NCBI GenBank assembly: GCA_947500755.1
Contig: CANMTO010000008.1
Coordinates: forward strand, 1,380-65,379
Source: Flavobacteriales bacterium
GTDB lineage: Bacteria > Bacteroidota > Bacteroidia > Flavobacteriales_D > Crocinitomicaceae
Length of the DNA stretch: 64,000 nt
Direction: 5' to 3'
Both the position numbers and the translations under genes were made by a program. The notes below the pieces were generated by a model. That model ran no database searches and was not told the origin of the DNA. It saw only the letters and a program-made list of their open reading frames with translations. Every line of letters starts with the position of its first letter. Within the stretch, counting starts at the first letter, position 1. Below are positions 1-41,900 of this stretch, piece after piece.

Positions 1-3000
1 TAAAAGACGCTCCTGTACCTACCTGCGTAGAACCATTCGCGTTTGAATACCAATAAAAAGTATTTCCACCACCACCGTTTGCATTCAGCACCACAGTTTG
101 ACCGCAGTTTATAGCTGCCGGAACGGCGGCTGAAGGAGCTGCCGGTAAATTTACACTAACGGCAACCGGAATTAGGTTTGATGAACATGGGGTACTCATT
201 TGAGTGATCGTAACCAAGCCATGACCGGTTCTAATACCTCCAACAATTAATGGATTCGTACCAGAGTTGAACGATCCACCTCCACCACCGCTACCGGTGT
301 TGTTATCATGGTATCCTCCAGCACCGCCTGAATAACCGCCGCCACCGCCGCCGCCGCCAGTGTTACCATGGGTACCACCACCGCCACCAAAACCACCAAT
401 ACAGGTAGCATTTGATCCATGGTTACCGCCATTACCGCCATTAATAAAGGATAGACCTCCTGTACCGTAAGATCCGCTACCACCGTTAGAGGACAATCCT
501 CCACCGCCAGAAGCACCACTGTTGTTACAGCCGTTTCCTCCGTTTCCTCCGGCACCGCCGGTCGTACAACCAGAAGCTTGTCCGTTGTTCGCAGTAACCG
601 CATGCGCATTGTGAAGAAGTGAACTTGTAGAATACTGTCCACCGCCACCGCCGGCAACAAGAAGCGGAACATTGGCAGAAGTTGTAACGAAGGATCCACC
701 TCCACCACTACCAGAAGTTGATACACCCCCTTGTTGTCCAACTAAGATTTTAATTTGCTGACCCGCTGTCAATTGGAAGTCGCCTCGTATTTGGGCACCT
801 CGACCGAATTGATTAGCTCCACCGCCTTGAGCACCGAAGGCTTCAATTCGGTAGGTTGCGGTTGTTGGAACGGTCCAAAGCTGAATACCACTTGAAGATG
901 TTACTAAACCCGCCAAATTTGTGGCTGTATAAGCCGAATTTACCTGAGCTTGAGTTGGACCAAACTGTCCAGTTGCAGAGCAGTTAGTAAATGTGTAGGT
1001 TGTACCAGCACCCATACCCGTGGTTGAAGCCACGTAATAGGTAGTAGCACTTGATAGCGCAGGCGTAGTCCATGGACTTCCTGTTCCTACAATGGTAGAT
1101 CCTGCTGCGTTTGAAAACCACGTAATCGTATTACCACCTCCTCCAGCTGCAGAAAGTACTGTTGTTTGACCGCAGTTTATGTTTACGTTCGGGTTAGCTA
1201 CAGAAGGACTAGCAAGCGGATTAACCGTAACTACAACCGGGTTAATGGCTGTTGCACAAGCACCGGCACCGGCACCCACATAATAAGTCGTTGTACCTGA
1301 AAGTTGAGGAGTCGTATAACTTGCTCCTGCTACCAATAAGGTTGAACCGTTGGCATTACTGTACCAATTAATTGCACCAAGATTGTTGGATGCAGTAATT
1401 GTAGTCGTTTGACCGCAATTTATCGTTACGTTGTTGGCCGTTGGTGCGGTTAATGCATTTACGGTTACCGCAACCGGTATTAATGAAGAAACACAAACCG
1501 CGGAATTCCAACTGATAGTAACTAATCCATTTCCTGTTTTAAAGCCCTGTGTATGGGTTATAGCAGAAGCTGTTGCATCAGTAAAACTTGAACCGCCACC
1601 GCCGCCGCCGCCGCCATATCCAGAACCACCACCATAATAACCACCACCACCACTACCGGCATAATATCCAGAACCACCACCGTTTCCAAGGGAACCTGCC
1701 GGACCACCTTGAGAGGCTCCAGCGCCTCCAGCAGCTTGAGTTCCTCCTTGACCGCAGTAGGTTGGATTAAGTGAATTATTAGTATATCCTCCACCACCAA
1801 TTAATCCTCCACCGAGGCCACCATGATCGTTTGTCCAGTTCCAATAATATCCTGCACCACCACCACCACCGGCGACTATTTTTCTATCCACTAAGGCAAC
1901 ACCACCGATTCTAACATCGGTAGCACCTCCACCACCAGCAACACAGCCACATCCATAAGGCACGCCTCCACCATTCCAACCTCCAAGAGACATGGTGCCT
2001 TGACCACCTACATTCACATATACTGTTTGCCCCGGTGCTACAGAGATGGTTGCTTGAACGCGACCACCATTACCACCCGTACCATAACTTGAAGTACCAC
2101 CTTGCGCTCCTTGCGCGTCAACCGTAATAGAAGTTACACCTGCCGGTACCGTCCATGTTTGCTGAGCCCCAGTGTAATTAAATGATTGAGTCCCTGGCGT
2201 TGTACTAACAGAAGAAACATAATATGTTGTTGCTGAGGTTAAGGCAGGAGTAGTATAATTAGCTCCCGAACCAACTGCGCCAGTTCCATTTGAATTGGTA
2301 TACCACAGATAAGAATTACCTGCACCATTAGATGCTGTTAAATTTGCTGTGGTACCACAACCAACAACTGCAGCATTTGCTGTTGGAGCCGCTAATGCGC
2401 TTACGGTAATTGGAACAGCCACGGGTTGAGAAGCACAACCGATACTGTTCCATGAAATGGTAACAATTCCGTTTCCTGTTTTAAATCCTTGAGTATTGGT
2501 AACACTAGTTGATTGATTATTTGTGAAGCTAGAGCCACCGCCACCGCCACCGCCGTAATATCCTGAACCACCGCCGTAGTAACCACCGCCACCACTTCCT
2601 GCGTAGTATGCAGATCCTCCACCGGTGCCGAGTGTACCTGCTGGCGCACCGAATCCAGAAGCCCCTGCTCCACCCGCAGCCTGAGTTCCACCCTGACCGC
2701 AATACGTTGCGTTGTAGTTATTATTTGCTTTTCCTGCTTCTCCAGTTAAACCACCGCCGTTTCCGCCGTGATCATTGTTCCAGTTCCAATAGTATCCTGC
2801 ACCGCCACCACCACCGGCAACAATGGCACGGTTGGCCAATGCATTTCCACCAATACGAATGTCTGAGGCACCACCACCACCACCAACACAACCGCATCCG
2901 TAAGGTGTTCCGCCACCGTTCCAACCACCAGTTGAATAATTACCTTGGCCACCAACATTGACAATAATTGTTGCACCTGGAGATACAGGTATTGTTGCTT

Positions 3001-5020
3001 GGGTTCTTCCACCGAGTCCGGCTGTACCGTAACTGGTCTGACCTCCTTGAGCTCCCTGCACATCTACATTAATTGAAGTAACTCCTGCGGGAACTGTCCA
3101 CGTTTGTTGTGCGCCTGTGAAATTAAAGGTTTGACTTCCTTGGTTCACATTTGCTTGAACCGCATAAATGGTAGTTCCTGCGGCCAACGAAGGCGTTGTA
3201 TATGTTGAACCTGTACCCAATAGGTTGCCCCCTGCTGCGGCAGTGTACCAAGCCGTGTTGTTTCCAGAAGAAGACGTTAACGTGGTAGTTCCCCCGCAGC
3301 TTATTGCGGTAGTCCCTGTAATTACAGGCTGTGATACGTTCGAGTTTACGGTAACGGGCACCGCAACAATATTTGAAAGACAAGCCCCTTGACCTGCAGT
3401 TGTTGCAGCCACTTGTGTTAAAAATGTGGTTGCTATGTTGGTTGCCGTATTGTCGTCAATATAACCACCACTTGATGCGGCATATAATAAATAGTAAAGT
3501 CGAGTTGTCCCGGAAAGACCAGAAATATCATGTTGCGTATTATCTGTATTGGTTGCCCACGTATGTGTTGCTCCTGCATTATTTGGAATAATAACCATTT
3601 GGTTGATAGATGGGTCTCCAGCACTATATACACGCTTTAACATTACCTTATAAGTCTGGCATCCTACTGTTACAGATAGTGTGGTTCCATTGTACGTTCC
3701 AGAACCATCTGCCCCGTTATTTCCTGAAATGTTAAATGTAGAGATGTTGTTGACATCAGCTGCCAAAACCCACATGTTATTAATTTTTCTCGTAAAGTAC
3801 TGCCCCCCTGCACCAAAAATATTGGAGTTCGCAATGGCATTATCCGAATATGTAAGGTTGTTCCCGAGGTTTGTTCCGATGTAGTTACCTCCATCGTACA
3901 TGTCATTTCCTCCATCACTGATGTAGGTACTGTTCAATCCGTTTGGACCATCCATGGTAAAATTATAACCATTGGGAACCGCTGCGCTTATTGCTCCTGC
4001 ATTTGAGTTTAGTGAACTCAATATGTTTGCTAAAGAAGCGGCACTACATCCTGCTTGTCCAGAAGTTGTGCGCACATAATAAATGGTATTCCCTACAAGG
4101 GCTGGCGTAGTAAAAGAAGCTCCTGTTCCAACTTGTTGCGTCGCTGCCGCATCTGAATACCACACGTAAGTACCTGCACTTCCAGAAGCAGTAAGGGTAG
4201 CTGTATTACCGCAATTGATACTTACAGGGTTCGCTGTTGGAGAAGGCAAGGGATTCACTGTAATAGGAACCGCTACAACGGGTGAGGTGCATGGTATATT
4301 TTGATAAGTTACCGTAACTCGCGCATACAATCCATTCAAAGAACCATGGCCATTGAAAAAACCTAAACACGTACTTACTGGAATTCGAAATTGATTTGCC
4401 CCGGCGACCACATACTGGTTCGGCTGAAAGTTAAAGGTAAAAATATTATTGTTAGACCCACAACAATTACAATGGTAGGCAGGTGTGAAGGGGGTGCCGT
4501 TATTATTATTCAATTGCGGGGTTAGTGCTTGGCCGTTGTGACATTGTACACCCACGCTAATCTGTATTTGAACAGTTGCAATTTGGGTTCCTGCTGCTAA
4601 ATTGTCATTCCAATTGAATCCCACAGACCCCCCGCAACCATAGTAAGACGATGCACCCCCACAACAGTTGTTTGGAACATTTACCAATTGGCCATAAGTT
4701 GAAATATTATAGGTTTGAGTACCCGCCTGAGCTGCTCCTGCTGCACCGCGCAGATACATAGTTGTATTTGAGGTTAAGGCTGGAGTGGTATATGAGGCTC
4801 CTGTACCGACCATGTTGGTGCCTGCCGCATCGCTGTACCATATATAGTTAGGAGAGCCCGTTGCAGATAGTGTCGCTGTTGCGCCACAATTTATCGCAAC
4901 CGCATTCGACGTAGGCGTTGGAGGCGGGCATTGCCCAAATACAAAAACCATTGCAAAGATTGCAAAGGCCGTAAATCCAAATCGCAGAAAAAGCTTTGAA
5001 GAGTGTAGAAGAGTAGTCAT
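1..5020 (-). CDS. Giant secreted multidomain surface protein, 3' end beyond the window (signal peptide; at least 7 Ig-like INCG modules; Cys-rich module; unassigned module; three glycine-rich Gly_rich/ALK-LTK-type domains)
   Basis: Absent from the ORF track because it has no in-window stop. Hand translation of the minus strand from ATG 5020-5018 gives [55 protein letters not shown]... I re-verified the same frame at 4561-5020, 3841-4080, 3061-3180, 2441-2500, 2161-2200, 1501-1560, 600-1020 and 1-260. It is still open at base 1 (...[38 protein letters not shown]). All track ORFs at 247-3918 lie in other frames or on the other strand. Confidence 0.85.
   Translation of the reverse strand, partial: [1673 protein letters not shown]
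1508..3133 (-). repeat. Intragenic tandem duplication: two glycine-rich domains of about 228 aa (2450-3133 and 1508-2188) separated by an Ig-like spacer
   Basis: [31 protein letters not shown]...[13 protein letters not shown] compared with [31 protein letters not shown]...[13 protein letters not shown]. The nucleotide copies differ mainly at third codon positions. Confidence 0.8.
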
Positions 5021-5343: not shown

Positions 5344-7434
5344 CTAATTAACTACGAACGGTAGTATACTATGTTTTTTAGTACTGGTTGAAACGAATTG
5401 TGCGAGGTATTTCCCACTGGCTAATGGAAGGCTTAGTGATTGGCTTCCTTCTAAAGCTACATCAAACACTACGCGGCCTTGCGCGTCAAAAATACGTGTT
5501 TGAAAAATTTCATCTGTTGGAAGGGAAACATTGAACGATCCACTGTTAGGATTTGGATATAGGCTAAACACCATGTTATCTATGCTCGGTGCCTCTGCAT
5601 TCATAAGATTTTGTACCTGAAAGGAGTCAAGCATTTGACAGCCGTTGGCATCGGTAATGAGCACCTCATAGAAACCCGAGCCCAGCGAAGTTAAATCCTC
5701 AGATGCGTCATTGGTATTCCAAAGATACATATAGGGTGCTACTCCCCCTTGGGCTGTTAGATCAATCGCCCCATTGTTTAAGACCGTTTCATCCGTAACA
5801 AATCCAGTAGCCACGATCGCTGAAGGAGCAATCAAGTTAAAGGCTTGTTGAATTGAACATCCATTTCCAAAAGAAAGCGTTGCTAAATATGTACCAGCTC
5901 CCAAGCCACTGAGTTGGGTTCCAACACTTCCCTCTGACCAAAGCACCGAGGTGGCTGTATTATTTGTAACATTCAACTGTATTCCCCCATTGTATGAATC
6001 AGCGCACAAGGGATCTGCTTGAATAACGGTGTAGGTTGGAGGAATCACATCATATACAAAAACAGCGGTATCTAAACGACATCCGTGCGTTCCCTCAATG
6101 TGTACCGTATACGTGTTCGTGGTAAGACTAGGATTAAATACACCCGTTACGTTATTCCCCCAGGTTACATCAAACGGAGCTTGTGCTCCCTGTATTAATA
6201 AGGTTGCTGACGCATCTTGGATATAGCAAGAATCGGTCAACAAAAAGGCAGGGACAATCGGGTTCCAAGTATTTGAGGCAGCCAACACCGCTTGAAAGGC
6301 ATCTAACCTACCCGCACCAAGTTTACCTGCATACGTTGGGTTTAAAGAATTTAGAGGAGCTGCCGTACTTTTAAGTATTTGCTCAATTTGAATGTTTGAG
6401 ATGCATTTATTGGCTGATAGCATTAATGCCACTGTTCCACTTACATAAGCGGCCGCGAACGAGGTTCCGTTCATATTCAGAAACCATCCACTTGCTGGAG
6501 ATACCGCAACACCGTAACCGGGCGCAGCTAAATCTACTGAATCATTATGGTTATGTGTCGAGGTTGGATCACCCGCCCACTGCTCGTGATTGTCTGTAGC
6601 ACCTACCGAGGTAACGGAGAAGACATGATTGTAAGAAGCTGGGTAAACAAGCGCATCTGGTAAGCCACACGTATTTCCATTTCCGGCTGAAGCTACAATA
6701 AAGGAACCGTTAGCGGCAGCCTCTTCGATTACATCCTGTTCCAATTGACTGAAGAAGCACCCGCTGCTCCAACTGATGTTAATAACATCGGCGCCCGCGT
6801 AACTTGCCGCCAAGACCTCATTAAAATTCATTTTATAGAGGGCAAGGCTTGTATTGAAGCCAATAGAACTTAGACCATAGCCATTGTTCGTTTTACCAGC
6901 GGCAGTGATTGCAACAGCTGTTCCATGCGTAGTGGTTAAATTGTTATTGACGTCGTAGTAAATATATTTCCCTTCTAGGTCCTGGTGATTCACATCGAAA
7001 TTTTGATCGCACACAGCAATCACCACTTGATTATCGCCTTGGGTTAGATCCCATGCTTGAGGCGCATTGATCAGGGTTAACGCATAATCAGAAATTCCCG
7101 CTTGACTGTTTAAATCATTTGGGACGTATAAAGGGGTGTATTCAGGGCCTCGTTCGATGCTGTAAATTTTACTTCCTAAAGAAGCACACGCCTCTTTAAA
7201 TTGCAGAAGATCGCACTTCCCGTTAACTTCATACACTTTTTGAAGTTCGGGATTTCTACTTGCACTGAGTGCTTTTACAGGGGTAGTCAATTCAAATCGA
7301 TTGCTTAGGGCACTCCACGCAGTTGAACTAAAGACCGAAGGTTCAGCTTTAAACCAAAAGGTAGATTGTTGAGAGAAAGCGACAGAAATCGAACAGACAA
7401 TGAAAATTGTTTTAAGGAAAGATAAGCAGTTCAT
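5344..7434 (-). CDS. S8 (subtilisin-family) serine peptidase with SprB-like repeats and a T9SS type A C-terminal sorting domain
   Basis: Triad contexts are VIAVCDQNFD (Asp), HGTAVA (His) and GTSFAAAYVSGTVAL (Ser). The signal peptide MNCLSFLKTIFIVCSISVAFSQQ starts at the internal ATG 7434 (the ORF extends to 7473). The C-terminal tail is SLYPNPNSGSFNVSL...GKYLAQFVS. Confidence 0.9.
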   Translation of the reverse strand: MNCLSFLKTIFIVCSISVAFSQQSTFWFKAEPSVFSSTAWSALSNRFELTTPVKALSASRNPELQKVYEVNGKCDLLQFKEACASLGSKIYSIERGPEYTPLYVPNDLNSQAGISDYALTLINAPQAWDLTQGDNQVVIAVCDQNFDVNHQDLEGKYIYYDVNNNLTTTHGTAVAITAAGKTNNGYGLSSIGFNTSLALYKMNFNEVLAASYAGADVINISWSSGCFFSQLEQDVIEEAAANGSFIVASAGNGNTCGLPDALVYPASYNHVFSVTSVGATDNHEQWAGDPTSTHNHNDSVDLAAPGYGVAVSPASGWFLNMNGTSFAAAYVSGTVALMLSANKCISNIQIEQILKSTAAPLNSLNPTYAGKLGAGRLDAFQAVLAASNTWNPIVPAFLLTDSCYIQDASATLLIQGAQAPFDVTWGNNVTGVFNPSLTTNTYTVHIEGTHGCRLDTAVFVYDVIPPTYTVIQADPLCADSYNGGIQLNVTNNTATSVLWSEGSVGTQLSGLGAGTYLATLSFGNGCSIQQAFNLIAPSAIVATGFVTDETVLNNGAIDLTAQGGVAPYMYLWNTNDASEDLTSLGSGFYEVLITDANGCQMLDSFQVQNLMNAEAPSIDNMVFSLYPNPNSGSFNVSLPTDEIFQTRIFDAQGRVVFDVALEGSQSLSLPLASGKYLAQFVSTSTKKHSILPFVVN

Positions 7435-7525
7435 AGCGTAAGGTTTTGTGTTGTTTTGCCCGAAGGCGAACACGCTTACGCAACTGGTTCGGAGAAGGTT
7501 ACAAAAAATTAAATCAGATTACCTA

Positions 7526-21871: not shown

Positions 21872-22921
21872 TTAATTAACTCGTACTTTCTTTCTGTTGA
21901 TGTTATCTAGACTGTAGCGCACAAAGGTCTCAAAACCACCTTTGAAATTCGATACTAAAGATAAACGAGAGATGTTAATATCGTAAGCAAATCCGGCGGA
22001 AAAAGGCCCGTAAAAGATGGCCGAGCGCACCACCATGGCGTCTTTGAATCGATTAAAAACACCTACACTGAACGCTATTTCCTTGATGTTATCTGTTTCC
22101 CAAGAGGCCTTACGTATGATTTGCTTGTAACTAACTCCGAACAATAATTCGTTGGATTTGCGCTGCCTCTGAAAATAGATCGCGGGCTGAAGCACCCCAT
22201 TCATTGCTGTGATGCCAATATTCGCATTGACGAAACTTGAATAACGCACAGGAAGCGTTTGAATGCTTGAATTATAAAAGGAATACCTTGGATTATTGAC
22301 GTGATACGCGGCAAATCCCACATTAAATCCTTTATCCGCCTCGTTGGTAACCTTGCCAATATCGGTTTGAAAGGAATAGACCCCACCAACACCCAAGTCG
22401 AAGTATGAAAAATTTTGCTCATAAAACGGCTCACCATTCGGAAGAATAGGATTAAACGACATCCCGTCATACTGTGTACCCCATTGTCCAGCGGCCGGAT
22501 TAGTAACGCATTGTCCAAAGGTTGAATTCAAGCCTAAAGCAACTTTGCTAAACCGAGAAATCTTTAAATTGTATGAGAAGTTAATGCCAATATTACTTTG
22601 GCTGAAGTAACCATCACCCATTCTATCATTGACGAAAACAAGTCCTGCCCCTAAGGTTCCATTTGAATTTTTCAATGCTGCAGTTAAACGCCCGTCTATA
22701 GCAGCAAAAAACGTTTGAAATGGAGAAGCAAAACTACCGTATTGTCCTCTATACATGGCTATCCCTTGAAACGACGCATTAGCACCTGCCAACGCCGGAT
22801 TCAAGGTGAGTGGGGATATCTCTGCTTGAGAAAAATGTACATCTTGCGCGGTAAAAACCAAGCAACGCATGGTTAATGCTAGAACCAAAAATGTTTGAAC
22901 TGTACTGCGTGTATTCATCAT
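21872..22921 (-). CDS. PorP/SprF family type IX secretion system membrane protein
   Basis: N-terminal AQDVHFSQAEISPLTLNPALAG signature; about 350 aa of beta-barrel-like sequence. ATGA overlap with the upstream type-B cargo gene. Confidence 0.88.
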   Translation of the reverse strand: MMNTRSTVQTFLVLALTMRCLVFTAQDVHFSQAEISPLTLNPALAGANASFQGIAMYRGQYGSFASPFQTFFAAIDGRLTAALKNSNGTLGAGLVFVNDRMGDGYFSQSNIGINFSYNLKISRFSKVALGLNSTFGQCVTNPAAGQWGTQYDGMSFNPILPNGEPFYEQNFSYFDLGVGGVYSFQTDIGKVTNEADKGFNVGFAAYHVNNPRYSFYNSSIQTLPVRYSSFVNANIGITAMNGVLQPAIYFQRQRKSNELLFGVSYKQIIRKASWETDNIKEIAFSVGVFNRFKDAMVVRSAIFYGPFSAGFAYDINISRLSLVSNFKGGFETFVRYSLDNINRKKVRVN

Positions 22922-25038
22922 CTTACCAACGTTAAACTACCTGATTTATGAAGTATTGTATCGTCGTACAATTGTACATTTAAATCATACACATAATTTC
23001 CTTCTTGCGCTGGCCTACCTTTATAAAACCCATCCCATTCAGCATTGATATTCGTAGCCTCAAATACTTTTTGCCCCCAACGGTCATAAATTACAAATCC
23101 AAAATCCTTTACGCATACTGCTTTTCCAAAAACCCTCAGCGTGTTGTTTTCTTTCGGACCTGTTCCATTCGGACTAAAAATCGTAGGAACAAAAAACTCA
23201 CCACATAACAGTTTTACGCTAACTACCAAAGAATCTTCCCCTTGACATCCATTATTATCTTCAACCTGTACGTAATAGGTAATGGTAGAATCTGGGGTTA
23301 TGACTGGATTCGGGCAATCGGTACAGGATAAGCCATCTACGGGACTCCAATCGTAGATTGTTCCACCATAAACATTGGCAATAAACGAAGTTTCAGGGTT
23401 GATCACGGTATCTCCAGGAATCATGGTTATCGGTAAAGAATTAACAATACCAATAGTGCCCGCTGCCCCTATTTGACAACCGTTTGCATCACTTACATTC
23501 ACCCCATAGGTCCCGATATTCAGGTTTGAAATGCTGTCTGTGGTATTTCCATTTGTCCAGAGGTAATTGTAAGCACCTGTTCCACCAGACACCGTAACAT
23601 CCATGGTTCCTAAAACGCCTGATGCACAATCAATCGATGTTGAATCAGCACTAATGGTGAGGACGGGAGGCTGAATAATCGTAATTCCTTGCACGACCAC
23701 ACAATTCAATGCATCTACTACAACAATGTTGTAATTCCCCGGAGCTAGGCCAGTAACGGTATCGTTTGCTACACCAATTGGAGACCAAGAGAAAACAAAA
23801 GGCGGGGTTCCCAATGAATCTATCTGAACAGCTGCGGAACCATCTGCTGCGCCATTACAAGATACATTAGTAACGAAATCAATACTCACTACCGGTGCTT
23901 GTGGTGTAGGATTAACCGTATACGAACTTAAAGAAGTAGTAATGCAGTTGGATAGGGTATCCTGAACATATATCGTGTAAACTCCTCCTGGAATATTAGG
24001 AAAGATGGGGCTTGCTTGATAATTAGATCCATTTAACGAATACACGTAGTTGGTACCAAGTGGGGCAGTCACCGTTATAGTACCTAAGGGTTGAGGACAG
24101 TTTGGTTGCGCGACCGTTGCTGTTGGAACCGGTGGAATAGTTAGTGCATTAGCAATTGTTGCACTGGTACTAAATCCTGAAGTACAACTCTGATTATTTG
24201 TTACAGTAAAGAGGTAACTCACTCCTGCAGGTAATCCAGTAAAAGTTGCGGTTGTTCCAGATCCTGTTTGAGAAAATGCACCCGGTGAGGCGTTCAAGGT
24301 CCAAGTTCCTGTTGAAGGTAATCCTGACAAAAGTACACTACCCGTATTTGAGGCACACGTAGGATTTTGTATGACTCCTACCTGGGGTGCGCTTGGATTG
24401 ATTGGTGGATTAACGAATACATTGTTTGACGGAACAGAAGTACATGCCGATGAAATCAATGTAACAGTAAACGTATATGAACCAATCGGCAAGTTTGTAA
24501 AACTAACATTAGGGCCAATGCCCGTTTGTGTAAAAGTAGTTGGACCAGGACCTGTTGCAGTGATTGTCCATTGTCCTGTGGTTGGTAAATTCGATAAAGG
24601 TACAGTACCGGTTGTAACACCCGGCGCGCAATTTGGTTGTTGCACCAATCCAGCTATGGGTGCAGGTGGATTTGATGGTATGGCGTTAATATTTACTGCA
24701 CTAGAGAACGCTGATGTGCATGGCACATTCGGCTCGATACAGATGAATGTATACGCTGTTCCAGGGGATAAATTACCAACGGTAGCTGTTGAGCCTGAGC
24801 CTGATTGTGTTGGTGCAGGAAACGGAGGAGGAACTGGTGCGCCTGAAGGAATCGCATACAAGTCCCAATTACCGTTTGGTAAACCAACCAACGTTGCAGT
24901 AGCCGTGGCGTTGGTACACGTAGGCTGAACAAGGGCTGTTATTACCGGCGCAAGCGGACATTGGGCCATCGTAACAATCGAGTTACCCAAACCTGTAAAA
25001 CCAAAGAATAAGAAGAAGAATCGTAAATTTCTAATCAT
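22918..25038 (-). CDS. T9SS type B sorting-domain surface protein (Ig-like/SprB-type repeats)
   Basis: ATG 25038 gives MIRNLRFFFLFFGFTG. Contains repeated modules of about 80 aa (VQPTC...LP.G.W...G.Y.F.V...C.S) and SprB-like repeats (CNGAADGSA..., GGTGAYNYLW...DANGC). The C-terminal gliding-motility CTD is FFVPTIFSPNG...YDRWGQKVFE...WDGFYKGRPAQEGNYVYDL. Confidence 0.88.
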   Translation of the reverse strand: MIRNLRFFFLFFGFTGLGNSIVTMAQCPLAPVITALVQPTCTNATATATLVGLPNGNWDLYAIPSGAPVPPPFPAPTQSGSGSTATVGNLSPGTAYTFICIEPNVPCTSAFSSAVNINAIPSNPPAPIAGLVQQPNCAPGVTTGTVPLSNLPTTGQWTITATGPGPTTFTQTGIGPNVSFTNLPIGSYTFTVTLISSACTSVPSNNVFVNPPINPSAPQVGVIQNPTCASNTGSVLLSGLPSTGTWTLNASPGAFSQTGSGTTATFTGLPAGVSYLFTVTNNQSCTSGFSTSATIANALTIPPVPTATVAQPNCPQPLGTITVTAPLGTNYVYSLNGSNYQASPIFPNIPGGVYTIYVQDTLSNCITTSLSSYTVNPTPQAPVVSIDFVTNVSCNGAADGSAAVQIDSLGTPPFVFSWSPIGVANDTVTGLAPGNYNIVVVDALNCVVVQGITIIQPPVLTISADSTSIDCASGVLGTMDVTVSGGTGAYNYLWTNGNTTDSISNLNIGTYGVNVSDANGCQIGAAGTIGIVNSLPITMIPGDTVINPETSFIANVYGGTIYDWSPVDGLSCTDCPNPVITPDSTITYYVQVEDNNGCQGEDSLVVSVKLLCGEFFVPTIFSPNGTGPKENNTLRVFGKAVCVKDFGFVIYDRWGQKVFEATNINAEWDGFYKGRPAQEGNYVYDLNVQLYDDTILHKSGSLTLVR

Positions 25039-25172
25039 AAAGTATTTTAAATACTCATTTCTGCCCCGTAAAGTTACACTAATATTCAAATATTTCCCAA
25101 GAAGCCCATTGAAATTGAATTACGCAATAATATAATCTTGGTTGCTTACCAAATAAAACAGACCTTTGTGAC

Positions 25173-31056: not shown

Positions 31057-34000
31057 TTAATGTAAATTTTCTGTTTCGGAACCTTCCTCGCCTAGCGTGT
31101 CGCAATGAAAATGTTTTTTCTTACGCTTAATGAATGGTGCTTTAGGCTCTGCTTGAACTTCCTTTGCCAACATTTTACCAATAATGCGCATTTTCTCTGC
31201 TTGATTTTGAGCCTGAAGTAAGAGGTCCTGCGCCTGTTCAAAATAGAAGACCCCTTCAATCATCGTAGATTGAACCTTCGCTTCAATAGAAAGTGGATTT
31301 GCAGTCCATAACACCAGGTCTGCATCTTTACCTACTTTAACACTTCCTGTTCGATGATCCAGATGCAGTAATTTTGCAGGGTTTAGGGTAACCATTTTCC
31401 ATGCTTCAATTTCTGAAACCCCTCCATATTTCACTGTTTTAGCGGCTTCCTGATTCAGTCTTCGTCCCATTTCCGCATCATCAGAATTAATCGCAACCGT
31501 AATTCCCTGTTCATGCATCAGTGCCGCATTGTAAGGAATAGCATCGTTTACTTCAAATTTATAGGCCCACCAATCGGCGAAGGTTGAACCACCAACTCCG
31601 TGGTTTTTCATTTTATCGGCGACTTTATATCCTTCCAAGATGTGCGTAAAAGTATTCACCTTGAAGCCCATAGAATCCGCTACTTTCATCAACATGTTTA
31701 CCTCACTTTGCACGTAAGAATGGCAAGAAATAAAACGTTTTCCGTCTAGGATTTCATTCAATGTTTCGAGTTCAAGGTCGAACCTATAGGTTCCTGAAAT
31801 TCGCTGCATTCGGTACTGTTTAGCCCGATAAAACGCATCATAAAACACCTGTTCCACCCCCATCCGCGTTTGAGGAAAACGAACAACATTTCGATCACCC
31901 CAATTTGATTGCTTCACATTTTCTCCGAGTGCACATTTTATAAATCCTGGGGCATTTTCAATTTTCATTGCTTCGGGCGTAGCTCCCCATTTCAATTTAA
32001 TGAGCGCAGATTGCCCGCCAATGGCATTGGCAGAACCATGTAATAGTTGCGCAGCGGTAACCCCACCTGCTAATTGTCTGTAAATTGAAATATCCTCTGG
32101 GTACACTACATCCCCAATGCTAACTTCAGCAGAAACCACTTGTCCTCCTTCATTAACCCCTCTTGAAATGGCGATATGTGAATGCTCGTCGATAATCCCA
32201 GCAGTTAAGTGCATGTTGGTACCGTTAATAATTTTTGCCCCCTCAGGGTACGGCGGTTTTTTAGCACCCACATAGGTGATTTTTCCTTGTTGAACAACGA
32301 CATAACCGTTATCGATAATCCCTTCAGATTCATTGGTCCAAATGGTAACTTGCTCATAAACGGTTGATTGCTGAGTAAGCATCGCTTTAGAACCATAAGC
32401 CATATTTGGAAACCAAATTTCTGGATTGGGATTGGACACCATCTTTATTGGCGTTGAAACTTCGGTATCTTTCACCCGACGTATAGCGGACCATTGTCCC
32501 CAGCTCCCATCCGGATAGGTAATATCTCCTTCCCAAACGGAACCATTTGAGGAAATTTTACCATGAAGCAAAAACATCTTAGACTCGGCATTCGGAAGGG
32601 CAAACTGCAGGTTTACATCCCGGTCTGAATAGGTAAAAGAAACCGTTGTAATTACTGTATCTTTCTTAAATACTTTAAGTTTAGAATCCCAGATGTCTTT
32701 ATACTCAATTAGTGAAACTTTGGGTTTTTGATTGTCCCCTGAGACCTTCATCTCAAAGCGAAGACCTTTTAAATTCAGGCTATAGGTTCCAAGCACATTC
32801 GTTTGATTTGAGGGCTGTATGGCTTGACCATTACCAAGAGACCAAGATTCGACTAAGGTAGCTTCATACACGAATGGATCGGTGGAGAACAGATTAAAGC
32901 TCGCTAATTTGGATGCTTCAAGGGTCCCGATTATGGAATCCAAGCCGAGATAGGAGGCCGGTATTGTGGTAAGAGACGCCAGAATGGAAGAGGAGCTTGT
33001 ACCGTTAGCAATTAATTTTCGGATGGTTTTCCAGAAATCTGTTAGCGTAAGTCCGTGGGTTGTGATCGCCGTCGAAATTCCAGCATCGGACAGAATCTTA
33101 AAATTATACGGAGCGGCCTCCCAGTGTTTTAACTCTTGAATCGAAACGTTTTTTGCGACATAGGGATCAGAAACGTCGAGCGGTTTAGGGAAGGTCAGCG
33201 GAACAATAAGTTTAGGGTTGAGGGGCTTTAGCGCCTCTATGATGGCATATTCATCACCTGCGGTCACATATATAAACTTCTGTTTGAATTCTTTAGCAAC
33301 GCGTTCAGCACGTAGGATATCCCATTTATCTCCCACCTTAAAGACTGATGGTAAATGTTCATTAGCCACCCATGCGTCCATGGATTGTTTACCTAACTCT
33401 GAAGCCGGGTTCTTTTTATAATATTCAAGATCATAAAACGATTGACGCAATAAGGCAATAGAGCCCATTAAGGAAGACGGATACGTTTGTTGAGAAACGC
33501 CTTTATTGAAGGAATAAAAAAAGGCTGAGGCACGGGTGCGAGTTGCTTCCAAGGGATTTAGATTCCCTAATGCAATTAGGGGCGCGGAGCCCCGAACAAT
33601 CCCATCCGCTTGATGGGGGACGGCAAACCCAAACCCTTGTTTGTATAATTCCGTGCAGCGTTCATCGCTTACATTAAATCCATCGAGTGCATTGATTTCT
33701 GGGTGGATGGATTCGTTCCAATAAAACGCGCCTTGTTTTGATGTTTCTAATTGCGGATAGGATCCCTTGTGATGGGAGGATGCTTTAACAACTCCAGCAT
33801 CGGTATACAACTCAATAAATGAGGTAACTGCAGTAAATCCTTCCTTATCGAATATCACAAAATCCGACGGAATATTTACATTGGTTCCAACTTCAAGAAT
33901 CCGTTCTGCTTGAATTAATATCGTCGCGTTCTCTAGTTTCTTGGTCGGATTCACATAAACGTCAACATTAATTAGGGCAATTTTTTTCATTTCCGAAGGC

Positions 34001-34092
34001 GCTACACCGTTAGTAGGCCGCACTTGAGCATGGCCAACCTGCAGAAAGCCGAAAAGTAGAAGGAAACACGAAATGGGATAAATTAGCTTCAT
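31057..34092 (-). CDS. Large two-module amidohydrolase-family protein (secreted)
   Basis: Signal peptide. The C-terminal module has an intact TAGIIDEHSHIA (HxH), CHSY, FTHILEG and AINSDDAE. The N-terminal module has TSFIELYTDAG in place of HxH. 1011 aa. Confidence 0.8.
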   Translation of the reverse strand: MKLIYPISCFLLLFGFLQVGHAQVRPTNGVAPSEMKKIALINVDVYVNPTKKLENATILIQAERILEVGTNVNIPSDFVIFDKEGFTAVTSFIELYTDAGVVKASSHHKGSYPQLETSKQGAFYWNESIHPEINALDGFNVSDERCTELYKQGFGFAVPHQADGIVRGSAPLIALGNLNPLEATRTRASAFFYSFNKGVSQQTYPSSLMGSIALLRQSFYDLEYYKKNPASELGKQSMDAWVANEHLPSVFKVGDKWDILRAERVAKEFKQKFIYVTAGDEYAIIEALKPLNPKLIVPLTFPKPLDVSDPYVAKNVSIQELKHWEAAPYNFKILSDAGISTAITTHGLTLTDFWKTIRKLIANGTSSSSILASLTTIPASYLGLDSIIGTLEASKLASFNLFSTDPFVYEATLVESWSLGNGQAIQPSNQTNVLGTYSLNLKGLRFEMKVSGDNQKPKVSLIEYKDIWDSKLKVFKKDTVITTVSFTYSDRDVNLQFALPNAESKMFLLHGKISSNGSVWEGDITYPDGSWGQWSAIRRVKDTEVSTPIKMVSNPNPEIWFPNMAYGSKAMLTQQSTVYEQVTIWTNESEGIIDNGYVVVQQGKITYVGAKKPPYPEGAKIINGTNMHLTAGIIDEHSHIAISRGVNEGGQVVSAEVSIGDVVYPEDISIYRQLAGGVTAAQLLHGSANAIGGQSALIKLKWGATPEAMKIENAPGFIKCALGENVKQSNWGDRNVVRFPQTRMGVEQVFYDAFYRAKQYRMQRISGTYRFDLELETLNEILDGKRFISCHSYVQSEVNMLMKVADSMGFKVNTFTHILEGYKVADKMKNHGVGGSTFADWWAYKFEVNDAIPYNAALMHEQGITVAINSDDAEMGRRLNQEAAKTVKYGGVSEIEAWKMVTLNPAKLLHLDHRTGSVKVGKDADLVLWTANPLSIEAKVQSTMIEGVFYFEQAQDLLLQAQNQAEKMRIIGKMLAKEVQAEPKAPFIKRKKKHFHCDTLGEEGSETENLH

Positions 34093-34796: not shown

Positions 34797-34847
34797 TAAA
34801 TAATTGTTAGGTAGCCTCCAAAATTAACCATTATAAAAGATTGTATA

Positions 34848-34855
34848 TACCTTTG
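34848..34855 (+). promoter_or_regulatory. Candidate -7 box TAccTTTG
   Basis: Exact TAnnTTTG match 16 nt upstream of ATG 34871. No well-spaced -33 TTG. Confidence 0.25.
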
Positions 34856-34870
34856 TTGAAAGCAACTTTT

Positions 34871-37429
34871 ATGCGTATTTTTCTAAGACAGAACATTTTA
34901 ATACTGTTTTTTCTTAGTAATGTTTGTGTTTTATCTCAAACCCTTGTTATTAATGAAATTTCCCAAGGCCCCTCGGGTTCAAAAGAATACGTGGAGTTCT
35001 TGGTGGTCCCAACGGGAGCAATAAATCCTTGTCAACCCAATGCCAATTGCCTTGACCTCCGTGGATGGATTTTCGATGACAATAACAGTTATTTCACACC
35101 GGGAAGCACATCGGGTGTTGGGCTAGCTCAAGGCTCCTTACGATTTTCCAACTCGGCTTTTTGGGCATGTATACCGGTTGGGACACTCATTGTTATCTTC
35201 AACGATATGGACATAAATGCTTCAATTCCAGCTAATGACGTTAGTATGAATGATGGAAATTGTCGATTAATAATTCCAGCATCCTCGGGCTTAATAGAAG
35301 GTAACGCAAATAATCCATCGGCTGCCGCACCTTTAACGTATCCTATTGTTGGATGGACGGTAGGAGGCTTTTGGAATTATACTGGAATGGCTAATACTGG
35401 CGACTCGTACCAAGTTTATGCACCTGTTAACACCAGTATTCCAGCACATGCGATTAGTTGGGGAAATAACTCTTCAAACAATATTATATATTTTGCCGGA
35501 CCATCAACTGCTTTGGTCTTTTATTTTAATAGTTTGAGTAACAACCCCTACGTACAAAATAATTGGTCAAGTGGGTCTTCTCCTTTGTTTGAAACACCTG
35601 GATCTGGCAACAATGCCGCAAACACGAACTACATTCAATCGTTAACCAACAATTGTAGTCCTATTGCACCTTTGGTGGTCAATCCATCGGCTCAACCTGC
35701 TGTTTGCATATGCAATGGAAGTGTAACTGCCTCCCCAAGTGGTGGGAATGGCGTATATTCTTATGTATGGACAAACGCACAGGGACAAGCCATTGGTAAT
35801 TCGTCAACTGTTTCTAATCTTTGTGCAGGTTGGTATTACGTTCAAGTAGGCTCTGGAGGATGTACAGACAATGATAGCATTCAAGTTATTAACGCTGGGG
35901 CACTTATCAATCCAACGTTTTCAAACTTTGGACCATATTGCCAGGGTGTAATTCCTGCCGTTTTGCCCAACACCTCCAATAATGGCATCACAGGCACATG
36001 GACACCGCCTAGCATTAGCACGTTTAGCAGCGGCAGTTCGGTATACACCTTTACCCCAAACGCAGGACAATGCGCTAATACGAGCACCCAAACTGTAGTG
36101 GTGAATGGGAACATAACGCCAACATTTAATACGTATGGTCCATATTGCCCTTCAGCACAACTCCCTGCACTTCCAAATACTTCACTTAACGGAATTAGTG
36201 GTTCATGGAACCCCGGAATGGTTAATTCAACCTTAGGCTCAACTACCTACACATTCACACCCGCAGGAGGACAATGTGGCAGCACAGAAAACCTCATAAT
36301 AACCATTATAAGTAGTGTAGCACCCACCTTTATGAATTTAGGGCCTTATTGCCAAAATACGCTTGTGGCTCCACTACCGAGCACATCCAATAACGGCATT
36401 AGTGGGAATTGGAATCCACCTTCAGTTAATGCGAATATACAGGGTTTAGGTACATATATTTTCACTCCTGACGCTGGTCAATGCGGCGACACTATTGTGC
36501 AGCAGATTCAAGTAAGCGCGGAGTTATCTACAACATTTACGAATTTTGGTCCTTACTGCTTAGGTGATTTTACCGCACTGCCTAATACCAGTAGCAATGG
36601 GATTTCGGGAACTTGGAATCCATCAAATATTAATACCTCCCAAGTAGGAACAAGCACCTATACCTTTACCCCCACCCCCGGAAATTGTGCCATAGACACG
36701 GTTATATCAGTGTTAGTGGCTAACCCACTTATCAATGCGGGAAATGATACTACTATTTGTGCTGGAAATTATATTATATTGGAAGGGAGTGGTGGAAGCA
36801 ACTATCTATGGAATAATGGGGTACAGAATGGGATTCCATTTTCACCAAGTACCACCTCAACATACACCGTGTGCGGTACTGTTGGCTCTTGCACCGGATG
36901 TGACACCGTTCTAGTGACGGTAAATCCAAGTCCTAACGCTTCCTTTATATCAGATATAAGTGGCTACGATGTTCAATTTTTATACATGGGAACCCCTGTA
37001 CAAACCTTTAACTGGGATTTTGGTGATGGTGATAATTCCTCGTTGATGGATCCAGCTCATACCTACACTAGCCCGGGTACCTATGGGGTATTACTGATAG
37101 TAAATGATAACGGATGCACAAGCACTTATTTCGCAGAAATCGAGCTCTTTGCACCAGGAACCGATGTACATCTGATTAATATCATTACGCCAAATGGGGA
37201 TGGGGTGAATGATGAGTTCTACTTAAACCTGAATGGATATAAAAAGGTGACTATACAAATAGTTAACCGTTGGGGAAATCTCATGGCAGAATTGACTGGA
37301 TCTCAACTCACTTGGGATGGGAAAACGAATGGACATATGGCTCTAGAAGGCGTGTATTTTTACACATACGAAACGCTGGGTTATGACGGTAAGAACGCCA
37401 CGGGTCATGGATTCTTTCATCTAAAATAA
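34871..37429 (+). CDS. T9SS type B sorting-domain surface protein with an N-terminal lamin-tail-like domain, four Cys-containing 69-aa repeats and a PKD domain
   Basis: ATG 34871 gives MRIFLRQNILILFFLSNVCVLSQ. LTD-like LVINEISQGPSGSKEYVEFLVV...LRGWIFDDN; PKD FNWDFGDGDNS...HTYTSPGTYGV; CTD INIITPNGDGVNDEFY...VNRWGNLM...WDGKTNG...EGVYFYTY. Confidence 0.88.
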   Translation: MRIFLRQNILILFFLSNVCVLSQTLVINEISQGPSGSKEYVEFLVVPTGAINPCQPNANCLDLRGWIFDDNNSYFTPGSTSGVGLAQGSLRFSNSAFWACIPVGTLIVIFNDMDINASIPANDVSMNDGNCRLIIPASSGLIEGNANNPSAAAPLTYPIVGWTVGGFWNYTGMANTGDSYQVYAPVNTSIPAHAISWGNNSSNNIIYFAGPSTALVFYFNSLSNNPYVQNNWSSGSSPLFETPGSGNNAANTNYIQSLTNNCSPIAPLVVNPSAQPAVCICNGSVTASPSGGNGVYSYVWTNAQGQAIGNSSTVSNLCAGWYYVQVGSGGCTDNDSIQVINAGALINPTFSNFGPYCQGVIPAVLPNTSNNGITGTWTPPSISTFSSGSSVYTFTPNAGQCANTSTQTVVVNGNITPTFNTYGPYCPSAQLPALPNTSLNGISGSWNPGMVNSTLGSTTYTFTPAGGQCGSTENLIITIISSVAPTFMNLGPYCQNTLVAPLPSTSNNGISGNWNPPSVNANIQGLGTYIFTPDAGQCGDTIVQQIQVSAELSTTFTNFGPYCLGDFTALPNTSSNGISGTWNPSNINTSQVGTSTYTFTPTPGNCAIDTVISVLVANPLINAGNDTTICAGNYIILEGSGGSNYLWNNGVQNGIPFSPSTTSTYTVCGTVGSCTGCDTVLVTVNPSPNASFISDISGYDVQFLYMGTPVQTFNWDFGDGDNSSLMDPAHTYTSPGTYGVLLIVNDNGCTSTYFAEIELFAPGTDVHLINIITPNGDGVNDEFYLNLNGYKKVTIQIVNRWGNLMAELTGSQLTWDGKTNGHMALEGVYFYTYETLGYDGKNATGHGFFHLK
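35905..36725 (+). repeat. Four tandem repeats of about 207 nt (69 aa) within the CDS
   Basis: P(T/S)F.N.GPYC......LPNTS.NGI(T/S)G.WNP.......G...YTFTP..GQC occurs four times, beginning near 35905, 36113, 36316 and 36523. Confidence 0.85.
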
Positions 37430-38982: not shown

Positions 38983-41900
38983 GTGAATGATAAATCAATC
39001 ATTTTATCGGAATTAAATCAATTTGAACTGGACCTCTCAAGGTTTAATTCCTCTGATTTATTGGTGAATATCCAAGCGAAACATGTACTGCCTTTTGAAA
39101 AAGAAACGGAAGAACTGAGGCCTGAAGCATCGAAACTGATAAAAGCTGCGTATCAAAAAGAACGAGAAGAGGGTGTGTTTTCCTTATGTTTATCTGAAGG
39201 TATCCTATTCTTGCAGGAAGCAGAGCACCAGCAACAAATTCCAATTTTCCTTCATTTATTGAACCCGAAAATCAACCCCGTATTAAATCAAGTTTCTTGG
39301 AATATCGGGGCGGATGAATGGATCATAAACCCCTATTTATTGCAGATCTTTTCATTTGAAGAAACAGAATTTACAGCCCTTGAAAAAAAGGAACTATGTG
39401 AGCTGTTGACATCAAAAGGATATGATTTGGATGCACGTATTCGGTACATAGGAAATTTCCATCCGTATCGACACAGCCTATTGAAGGAAGTGATTGAGTT
39501 AAAAAAAGAAACCGATTTAAGTCATTTCGATTTTCTATATCAAGGTGCTCAACACGTTGAAGAACCCATCCATAAATCCTTGTCTCCATTACTTTTCGAG
39601 GCAGACCACACCCAGTTCCAAGCAATAAAACGGGCGGAGTTGCAACACTTGGTTATTCAAGGCCCCCCAGGGACCGGGAAATCACAAGTAATCGGAAATT
39701 TAATCGGTCGGTTTTTAGAAGAAAAAAAGCAGGTGCTTCTTTGTTCTCAAAAACGTCAAGCATTAGAAGTGATTGCGTCTAAATTAACAGATTGTGGACT
39801 CGGAGAATTAATGCTGAGGAGGAACTCGCAGGACGGAATAAAAACTAGTATTCAGTCGCTGGCCAAAAGCTGGGAAGCGATAGAAAAACCATTAGATTCC
39901 ATGGAGCAAGACTTTTCAAGTACCGTTCGCTTGAATTGGCTTCAAGGTCAACTGGACCTCTACCACAAGGACGGATTAATTGGGGAGATGAGCCCAAAGG
40001 ACTTCATTACCGCGACGCGAATCGGAGAAAAAAAGAACGCGGCATTTCATGCAGGCATGCCGAGTTACTCGGAATGGTTAACATATAAGCCTATAATTTC
40101 GACTATTCCTGATTCGGTGCTGCAAATGCTGAGTATGCTCAAAGGTAATTTGAACTTGGAAAACACCTTTGAAACACGTCTAAAAACACTTAAGCATATA
40201 CAAACGGAGCTAAGCCATTTACAATGGCAGCACTTAACCGATACGGAGATTCTTGAACAGGCACACGTAGCACAGATGGTACATTTGTTTTCAAATGATA
40301 CGGCGCAGCGCTGTTTGCCGTGGATGAAACATCGAAGTAAAATCAACCGATTGATTAAAAAGTTGGATCTTGCTGAGGCGCAGCTTCAACAGAAAGAGCA
40401 TGCGCTTACTTCGTGGAAAAAATTACCTTCGATTGTTTTGTTAAGTGGGCTACGTAAAGAACTTTCAAAAGGTGGTTTGTTTAAGAAATTCCATCAGCTT
40501 CGAATAAAACGAAACTGGTTAACTGAATCAACCGCTGATATTGGGGTATTAATTGAACTAACTGAAGTATACCATTCCTTACTTGATGAACGCTTAAACG
40601 CTCAAATGGAATTAATTTCGCTTGGATTAACGGATATTAGGACCGATATTACAGCCTATAAAACCTTTAATACCTTGTTTGATGGAAACTTGTATGAACA
40701 ATACCACGCACTTTCTAAACAAGAACGAAGTTTCTATGGTACAAATCATGCAATGATTCAAGGAATTGCGCTAGCAATTAAACAACAATTCACAAGGAAT
40801 TCTGAAGCACCCGTCTATGAAAATATAGATCATCTTTTAACTAATTTCCATAGCTGTATTCCTCATTTAAAAGCATGGGATCAAGTCCCCTGTTCCGTCA
40901 CTGCCCCCGTGATTGAATTCGAAACTACTGGAGCCTATGAAGAGGCCATAATTGCTTCCGATTGGAACCGATTTATCGCCCAATTTCCTGGAATGAAGGA
41001 ATTTCTTTCGCTTTCCATTGCAGATGAATTAGCACGGATTAAGGCGAATAGAAAAAATACGCAAGAACGGGTTGTTCATCAGATTTTGGTTGATCGTAAA
41101 AACACCTTTGATGCATTTCATCGAATAATAGCTACGCCTAGCGGTAAATTAACGGCAAGGGAAAAGACATTAAAAAATGAATTGATTATAGGAAAAAGAA
41201 TCCTTTCAAGGCTTTTTAGTCGAAAAAGAAATTTCCCTGCCTTACGCACCGTACTGGAAAGTGAAGCTTCGCATTGGATTTCTTTATTGAAGCCCATTTG
41301 GCTAAGTAGTCCCGTGCAAATCGCCATGGATTTACCTTTGACTAAAAACCGTTTTGATGTTGCAATTATTGACGAGGCGAGTCAGTTGTTATTGTCTCAT
41401 TCGTTAGGTACGATTTATCGCTCCAAGCAATTAATTGTGGCCGGCGATTCTATGCAAATGGCACCTTCAGCCTTTTTTCAGCGAGGAACTTCTAATGCGC
41501 TCACCCTACTAGATCAGGCAGCATTCAATTTACCTCAAAGTCCATTAAAATTTCATTACAGAAGCCAACACGAGGAGTTGATACAATTTTCGAATCAACA
41601 TTTTTATAACAATGAACTCATTGTTTTGCCAAGCTATCCAAACTATCAAGCCATTACATCAATCTATCTCCCCGGGAATCATTACAAAGATGGAATAAAT
41701 ATAATTGAAGCACAGGCTGCAAAAAAGCTATTGGTTGAAAAATTAAGGCTAAAAGATACCCGCATTGGATTAGTAGCGTTTTCAGAAAAGCAACTTAAAG
41801 CCATAATTTCGTTGTGCACCACAGCGGAGCGCTTAGCGATGGAGGTAGCACTTGAATCAGATACGCTATTTTTGAAAACTGCAGAACAAATTCAAGGGGA

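Follow-up and report, generated by a model that had tools for sequence, protein, structure and literature searches.

The ligand-binding region of the receptors ALK and LTK is usually presented as an unusual fold particular to these receptors. Outside animals, a glycine-rich domain of Trichomonas, Flavobacteria and C. difficile phages was described in 2010 (Noel et al. 2010, PMC2843621), and the likeness of the cyanophage Pam3 gp24 fibre to C. elegans ALK was published in 2022 (PMC9608196). The Pfam family PF12810 is itself named 'ALK/LTK, Glycine-rich domain' (ALK_LTK_GRD), and through its name and its membership the family already ties glycine-rich proteins of bacteria to ALK/LTK; the link is not new. 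Here a glycine-rich module is described from a Flavobacteriales bacterium (Crocinitomicaceae; GenBank assembly GCA_947500755.1, contig CANMTO010000008.1, positions 1,380 to 65,379). The window, that is, the whole stretch of DNA that was analysed, is 64,000 nucleotides long, and the module, hereafter called copy 3, is encoded near its left edge within the open reading frame (ORF) of a giant surface protein. In the open-access literature no paper was found on an ALK-type bacterial subfamily, on the N-terminal element that marks it or on its closeness to vertebrate ALK.

The protein, presumably secreted, is more than 2,199 amino acids long and has at least five glycine-rich heads with Ig_7 spacers in between; copy 3 is the third of these heads. 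The best explanation of the locus as a whole, to which a probability of about 0.8 is given, is that copy 3 is an ALK/LTK-type TG module serving as a binding head on a secreted adhesin. The module and its parts, all on the minus strand, are as follows.

203-1000, minus strand: glycine-rich copy 3 (amino acids 1341-1606, 266 residues), a predicted complete ALK/LTK-type TG module (phmmer, AlphaFold, Foldseek)
914-1000, minus strand: N-terminal ALK-type element (copy-3 residues 1-29, TYTFTNCSATGQFGPTQAQVNSAYTATNL), a short strand and a helix by DSSP on the model
725-997, minus strand: glycine-poor block (copy-3 residues 2-92) holding the first beta-strands, the TNF-like part in ALK, and most of the similarity to ALK
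260-652, minus strand: glycine-run region (copy-3 residues 117-247), glycine runs and variable loops that align to the glycine runs of ALK
203-259, minus strand: C-terminal strands closing the predicted beta-sandwich (copy-3 residues 248-266, ending in GHGLVTIT; strands 248-257 and 262-265)

Sequence similarity to human ALK and LTK

A first-pass annotation of the window, made from the letters alone, had matched the translation of 1000 down to 203 motif for motif with the human ALK sequence. The translation is stop-free and reads as quoted there with one difference (SGSGGGGSF, written as SGSGGGGGSF), and the ALK strings given there are correct: the 304 residues of ALK 683-986 are exactly residues 8-311 of PDB chain 7lrz_A. 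Each of the nine motifs listed in the annotation occurs once in copy 3 (at residues 14, 21, 38, 50, 85, 114, 202, 217 and 259) and once in ALK (at residues 695, 702, 722, 734, 773, 839, 919, 931 and 975), in identical order.

When searched with phmmer against all PDB sequences, copy 3 matched human ALK with E=3.8e-18 (69.5 bits), human LTK with E=1.1e-14 and the nematode homologue, C. elegans SCD-2, with E=1.8e-06; below E=1, ALK-family ectodomains were its only matches. Human ALK scored 29.3 bits against SCD-2, its own nematode homologue, and 69.5 bits against copy 3, so that by this score human ALK is closer to a module of a bacterial surface protein than to the ALK homologue of the nematode. 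Of these 69.5 bits, 62.7 came from copy-3 residues 2-92, the glycine-poor block, with a HMMER composition bias of 0.4. Within this block 46 of the 91 aligned residues were identical to ALK (50.5%), and after removal of every column containing a glycine the proportion was 35 of 73 (47.9%). The BLOSUM62 score of the non-glycine columns was 174, against a mean of -49.5 for shuffled columns (standard deviation 16.4; z=13.6). When all glycines of the two sequences were masked as X, a check that the annotation had proposed, BLASTP still returned an alignment of 96 residues at 45.8% identity (E=9.6e-12). Neither of the two grounds for refutation named in the annotation applied: the alignment withstands glycine masking, and the order of the motifs is kept against the true ALK sequence.

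Predicted fold

The AlphaFold model of copy 3, built on 60 homologues, had a mean predicted local distance difference test score (pLDDT) of 94.6 and a predicted template modelling score (pTM) of 0.93. A Foldseek search of the model against the PDB returned 21 chains at E≤0.001, all of them ALK, LTK or SCD-2. The ALK and LTK chains aligned with template modelling (TM) scores of 0.69-0.78 at 29-32% identity (E about 1e-15) and SCD-2 with a TM-score of 0.55, and the next match after these had E>1.

By DSSP assignment on the model, the N-terminal element, which carries GPTQAQ...AY, forms a strand at residues 2-4 and a helix at residues 17-24, and the glycine-poor block contributes strands at residues 33-36, 39-43, 48-55, 68-77 and 82-86. 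At the other end of the module, GHGxVxI aligns with ALK 975-981. The intervening residues 117-247 (about 130) contain near-zero helix or strand, namely two 3-residue helical turns and two isolated bridge residues, and their pLDDT in ten-residue blocks is 79-98. In the solved ALK structures about 14 polyglycine-II helices form a hexagonal lattice. The pattern in copy 3 is as expected of a polyglycine-II lattice, and the model suggests, indirectly, that the region corresponds to the polyglycine-II lattice of ALK. Copy 3 would then constitute a complete TG module, in which a beta-sandwich (TNF-like in ALK) is packed on a lattice of glycine runs. Because the sequence, profile and predicted-fold evidence agree, copy 3 is almost certainly a true homologue of the human ALK/LTK ligand-binding domain, with the fold of that domain.

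Copy 3 and the classic glycine-rich modules

Two further glycine-rich modules lie upstream of copy 3 in the same protein.

2453-3133, minus strand: glycine-rich copy 1 (amino acids 630-856), classic PF12810 type (81.2 bits)
1511-2188, minus strand: glycine-rich copy 2 (amino acids 945-1170), classic PF12810 type (75 bits)

In BLASTP copies 1 and 2 share 74% identity, and no similarity was found between either of them and copy 3. Neither had an ALK match by sequence in the PDB, and in pairwise BLASTP against ALK the best result was E=0.022 (copy 2, 20.8 bits). Human ALK scored 124.6 bits on a profile made from copy-3 relatives and 15.4 bits on one made from copy-1 relatives, which bears out the earlier impression that copy 3 is nearer to the animal receptor than the two upstream copies are. 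Matches of copies 1 and 2 to antibody heavy chains in the PDB (to E=7e-05) were rejected as chance, the shared features being a GYYWNW motif and glycine/serine linker-like runs. When the AlphaFold model of copy 1 (pLDDT 95.9) was searched against the PDB with Foldseek, ALK and LTK again ranked first, with lower scores than for copy 3 (TM 0.49-0.58, the best chains at 0.54-0.58; E about 1e-8), and tail-tip and fibre proteins of phages came next.

The copy-3 and classic subfamily profiles are homologous (hhalign 99.3%, E=8e-21), and their alignment begins at copy-3 residue 30. A strand-helix element at the N-terminus (GPTQxQ...Y, ahead of the GIQxWxVP strand) is present in copy 3 and in ALK, and it is absent from copies 1 and 2 and from the PF12810 model; copies 4 and 5, which lie beyond the window, align with the classic profile from position 1 of that profile. 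Copy 3 is a member of an ALK-type subfamily that keeps this N-terminal strand-helix element, and ALK shares it.

Distribution of ALK-type modules

A HMMER search of 1.84 billion representative proteins returned relatives of copy 3 in 5,641 clusters (at 50% identity) at E≤1e-3 and in 594 clusters at E≤1e-30, mostly from metagenomes and metagenome-assembled genomes (MAGs). Most of the alignments begin at query residue 1-3, and these relatives therefore include the N-terminal element. Among genomes, the nearest matches, at 76-84% identity, were in freshwater MAGs of Flavobacteriales (Crocinitomicaceae and Cryomorphaceae) from Lake Mendota, Lac Pavin and a pond; the scan of genomes used back-translated patterns specific to the copy-3 sequence and so covers close relatives only. 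ALK-type modules at 51-54% identity were also found in two MAGs labelled archaeal, one an uncultured archaeon and one Thermoplasmatota (L011 4001-4900 and L012 4001-4397), and if the binning is right the subfamily reaches archaea. Relatives are fused to nearly all types of bacterial surface-sorting signal, among them type IX secretion system (T9SS) C-terminal domains, pilin N-methylation sites and PEP-CTERM and IPTL-CTERM tags, and others carry adhesin-type domains (Big_1/invasin or PKD).

Predicted phage proteins share the fold of the copy-3 model, with TM-scores up to 0.79 (Foldseek, BFVD). Several phage proteins that consist of the glycine-rich module only are named 'receptor protein-tyrosine kinase' in UniProt, presumably an automatic annotation error carried over from the domain name. 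One relative from a marine (TARA) metagenome is auto-annotated K05119, the KEGG ortholog number for ALK.

Among eukaryotes, the module was found in secreted proteins of cnidarians, Actinia tenebrosa (P0102) and Xenia (P0034 and P0048), and matches in two protist transcriptomes may be contamination. The Actinia gene has three exons with an intron inside the TG module, and a C-type lectin domain stands in front of the module; for these reasons it is a real animal gene.

Origin of the animal module

A neighbour-joining tree was calculated from 108 domains over 181 non-glycine columns with 60 bootstraps, human ALK being the sole true receptor sequence in it. A query of 98 residues from the start of the ALK TG region, searched against a large protein collection for animal ALK/LTK sequences, returned vertebrate ALK exon fragments only. 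The tree had been proposed in the annotation as a check on whether the metazoan sequences nest within bacterial ones; in it the cnidarian clade was recovered in 60 of 60 replicates, and the position of ALK was without support, its best partner being joined to it in 3 of 60. In none of the 60 replicates did a clade of six taxa or fewer unite the cnidarian sequences with ALK. The terminal branch of ALK measured 0.99, against a median of 0.32.

The eukaryotic distribution is patchy (bilaterian ALK, cnidarian lectin-TG genes and the two protist transcriptomes), and a prokaryotic origin of the module is compatible with this patchiness when it is set against the broad spread among bacteria, archaeal MAGs and phages. 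A more specific proposal is tentative, with the odds somewhat against it: the ALK/LTK module may have entered animals by horizontal transfer from a bacterium or phage with an ALK-type TG domain, the kinase being joined later, and the copy-3 subfamily would be the closest surviving relative of the donor. If this were true, the natural ligands of the copy-3 subfamily would show what the module bound before there were cytokines. The subfamily is in any case the natural starting set for tracing the source of the animal module.

The host protein and its proposed function

The features of the giant ORF other than its glycine-rich modules are as follows.

2-5020, minus strand: giant surface-protein ORF, with an ATG at 5020 and cut by the left window edge
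4931-5020, minus strand: probable N-terminal signal peptide MTTLLHSSKLFLRFGFTAFAIFAMVFVFGQ, a short polar start and then a hydrophobic stretch, judged by eye from the translation
1217-1447, minus strand: best-scoring Ig_7 spacer (amino acids 1192-1268), a PF19081 Pfam match that separates glycine-rich heads
2-202, minus strand: beginning of the Ig-like spacer that follows copy 3 (AINCGQTVVLNANGGGGNTFYWYSNANG...), an Ig_7-like repeat in the translation

The giant ORF is missing from the ORF list of the window because the window edge cuts it. The window is identical to part of a 74.5-kb metagenome contig in ENA (ERZ27280207, k141_2205356), which was used to extend the ORF; the contig gene, whose first 1,673 amino acids are identical to those of the window ORF, encodes at least 2,199 amino acids and is cut again at the contig end. 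The protein has a signal-like start followed by Ig_7 domains in alternation with glycine-rich modules, and two uncharacterised N-terminal regions. Three of the glycine-rich modules are inside the window and two more lie past its left edge, giving at least five in the gene. Pfam finds Ig_7 in 7 stretches and PF12810 in the window part of the protein, and Ig_7 in 8 stretches and PF12810 in 4 in the 2,199-residue contig gene, with no other Pfam family; PF19081 (Ig_7, Pfam name 'Ig-like domain CHU_C associated') totals 218.3 bits.

The giant protein would be exported by the T9SS and displayed on the cell surface. An extracellular, T9SS-exported protein is proposed because of the sorting signals of relatives, the Ig-like spacers, the signal-like N-terminus and the T9SS cargo encoded nearby, which comprises an adjoining S8 peptidase with Por_Secre_tail and three CHU_C proteins elsewhere in the window. 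One giant relative (P0199) has a Por_Secre_tail at its C-terminus that scores 25.2 bits, just under the Pfam cutoff of 27 bits.

Over 107 relatives of copy 3, column entropy was 0.4-1.5 bits in the strands and glycine runs (0.4-1.1 in the glycine runs) and 2.8-3.4 bits in the intervening loops, and the loops amid the glycine runs vary in both sequence and length. Low entropy in the scaffold together with variable loops fits a stable scaffold that presents specificity loops. Copy 3 would accordingly be pictured as a rigid binding head, with the conserved strands and glycine runs as scaffold and the variable loops giving specificity. The sandwich-plus-glycine architecture binds ALKAL cytokines in ALK/LTK, and the glycine-rich fibre tip of cyanophage Pam3 has been proposed to bind a host receptor (PMC9608196). 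By analogy with these systems, the chances that the module itself functions as an adhesin or binding head are put at about even.

The ligand would be of another kind than that of the animal receptors. The annotation had suggested that the ALKAL-contact residues be mapped onto copy 3, and at neither of the two sites were they conserved. Residues E859, Y966, E974 and E978 of ALK, reportedly the site-1 contacts in the 2021 structure papers, correspond respectively to N139, an ALK-only insertion, T258 and L262. The site-2 cytokine contacts S737, Y739 and L760 (PMC12017499) correspond to E53, F55 and R72. Each listed ALK contact position carries the expected residue, which was checked for the numbering, and the family columns at these positions vary. 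Because the cytokine-contact residues of ALK are not kept, the sequence comparison suggests that the ligand of copy 3 is not ALKAL-like.

Several observations concern the giant protein outside copy 3. Within its first 629 amino acids (3134-5020, minus strand), amid the first Ig_7 domains, Pfam matches nothing at E≤0.1 over two long regions: one, at about amino acids 205-340, is cysteine-rich with CC and CxC pairs (NNCCGGASSYYGCGG...HCNCCGSNNN), and the other, at about amino acids 430-620, is a stretch of about 190 residues rich in asparagine and threonine. These may be further, uncharacterised heads. Modules 4 and 5 past the left window edge (L001 17500-19011) are of yet other subtypes, for example SQTFNYTGSVQTFTAAAAGVYTLEAWGAQGGNDPS..., and the giant protein carries at least three sequence subtypes of one superfamily. 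On the minus strand, 247-741 is also open in a second frame within copy 3, as a 164-residue ORF with a TTG start; most likely this ORF is a side effect of GGN-rich coding, since the alternative frames of such sequence have few stops.

Weighing of the proposed reading and its alternatives

Six points weigh against the reading of copy 3 as an ALK/LTK-type TG module that serves as a binding head on a secreted adhesin. The fold is a predicted one. The C-terminus of the gene, where its own secretion signal would be, lies beyond the ends of both window and contig. The cysteine pair C688-C701 of ALK is not kept, C7 being present and V20 standing at the partner position. The gene neighbourhoods of three small homologues were unrelated and contained no shared gene that could encode a partner, such as a small helical ligand, and there is no bacterial member with a known binding partner. 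Lastly, PF12810 misses copy 3 at its gathering threshold of 24.5 bits, the sole Pfam match being PF21722 at E=0.049. This last point looks like a limit of the model and not evidence against membership. The match of PF12810 on human ALK starts at chain residue 51 (amino acid 733), and Pfam misses copy 3 because the first 50 residues of ALK have no counterpart in the model. For close relatives of copy 3 the scores run from 11 to 33 bits, around the cutoff; about a third of the listed copy-3 relatives carry the Pfam annotation, against all relatives of copy 1. PF12810 omits the element that marks the ALK-type subfamily, and many members, copy 3 included, consequently go unannotated.

The alternative that survives best is that the module is a structural or physical element without a binding role, for example a stiff spacer, a surface by which cells aggregate through self-association, or a face that binds ice. 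The presence of five heads of different subtypes in one protein can be read as structural repetition. An ice-binding role would suit the habitat, the closest genomes being lake and pond MAGs that include Lake Mendota and Lac Pavin, both subject to seasonal freezing. It would also suit the fold, since polyglycine-II bundles are the flat ice-binding scaffolds of arthropod (snow flea) antifreeze proteins (bioRxiv 10.1101/2023.11.25.568672). Nevertheless, wherever a role has been shown or proposed for the sandwich-plus-glycine architecture, as for the ALK/LTK cytokine and the host receptor of phage tips, that role is binding; hypervariable loops on a conserved scaffold suit specificity surfaces better than a uniform ice-binding face; and relatives of copy 3 are fused to pilins and adhesin-type domains. 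A purely structural role is therefore considered unlikely.

Animal DNA, present either as contamination of the assembly or through a recent animal-to-bacterium transfer, would account for the unusually high identity to a vertebrate protein (50% over 91 residues) and could be invoked for the marine relative that is auto-annotated with K05119. It is very improbable on several counts. Copy 3 is in frame within a bacterial ORF with Ig_7 domains on either side, and this ORF stands on a 74.5-kb contig with RecJ, LptD and T9SS cargo. Relatives at 76-84% identity recur in several freshwater Flavobacteriales MAGs, the family numbers thousands of clusters that are mostly from metagenomes and MAGs, and ALK, on its long branch in the tree, is no near neighbour of copy 3.

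A composition artefact, that is, a chance alignment of two glycine-rich low-complexity sequences, might explain the second HMMER stretch over the glycine runs (only 10.2 bits, with a bias of 43.7) and does have a precedent in the spurious antibody-chain matches that copies 1 and 2 give via GYYWNW and glycine linkers, but it is refuted for copy 3, and its probability is negligible, given that most of the score lies in the nearly unbiased glycine-poor stretch, that the non-glycine columns score far above shuffled columns, that BLASTP aligns the glycine-masked sequences and that the predicted fold finds ALK, LTK and SCD-2 alone at E≤0.001 in the PDB.

Remaining features of the window

The other genes noted in the window are as follows.

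5344-7434, minus strand: S8 subtilisin-like peptidase with SprB repeats and a T9SS Por_Secre_tail, the gene adjoining the giant ORF
22918-25089, minus strand: predicted T9SS type-B cargo with CHU_C (SprB, PKD or Ig_7 joined)
34841-37429, plus strand: predicted T9SS type-B cargo with CHU_C (SprB, PKD or Ig_7 joined)
53982-56633, plus strand: predicted T9SS type-B cargo with CHU_C (SprB, PKD or Ig_7 joined)
38983-42363, plus strand: 1,126-residue protein with helicase-type AAA_11/AAA_12 domains
31057-34092, minus strand: 1,011-residue protein with a C-terminal amidohydrolase domain

The GTG start listed for the S8 peptidase at 7473 is probably wrong, the product on record beginning at the ATG at 7434, 13 codons downstream. 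The cargo gene at 53982-56633 is followed by a 326-residue ORF and an OmpA/PD40 protein (56630-59228), and the arrangement over 53982-59228 may be the usual pair of a cargo and its outer-membrane partner. The remainder of the window, with RecJ, LptD, asparagine synthase and an S46 peptidase, looks like ordinary chromosome. No tRNA genes were found in the window, and no phage genes were found among the 10 large window ORFs that were scanned.

Comparison with known systems

The classic PF12810 proteins (of bacteria, Trichomonas BspA-GRD and C. difficile phages) belong to the same superfamily as copy 3 by the hhalign result given above and share its extracellular setting, and copies 1, 2, 4 and 5 of the giant protein are of this classic type. 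They differ from copy 3 in being without its first 29 or so residues, in having no pairwise match to ALK and in the lower TM-scores of their ALK fold (0.49-0.58).

The receptor-binding tips of phages (Pam3 gp24, 7YPX; Bxb1 tail tip, 9D93; Salmonella phage S16 gp38) resemble copy 3 in combining a TNF-like sandwich with a polyglycine lattice, and they show the same conserved scaffold with variable loops as the copy-3 family. The copy-1 model matches the Bxb1 tail tip 9D93 and the Pam3 fibre 7YPX weakly (TM 0.28-0.37). In the solved structures the phage tips form the ends of trimeric fibres and depend on a chaperone, whereas copy 3 is a bead in an Ig-like chain inside a cellular protein.

The TG proteins of Actinia and Xenia have the N-terminal element and reach 220-230 bits when scored with the copy-3 subfamily profile. 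Their identity to copy 3 is 42-48%, in alignments that cover 54-100% of copy 3.

The TG region of human ALK and LTK (PDB 7LRZ, 7NWZ and 7NX1) shares with copy 3 the nine motifs and their order as well as the N-terminal GPTQAQ helix element; identity to copy 3 is 50% in the first 91 residues and about 30-32% over the whole domain. ALK has insertions that copy 3 lacks, including one of about 36 residues after ILVGQQGE, and its TG module is followed by an EGF-like domain, whereas an Ig_7-type repeat follows GHGLVTIT in copy 3. The kinase and the transmembrane helix are features of ALK and LTK, and neither was found by Pfam in the 2,199 amino acids of the giant protein, the C-terminus of which lies beyond the contig. 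Small and abundant microbial versions of the module could be convenient models for the folding and stability of the polyglycine lattice. Set beside these relatives, the locus is not a new kind of system; it adds a useful sub-classification of a known family and exposes a gap in its annotation.

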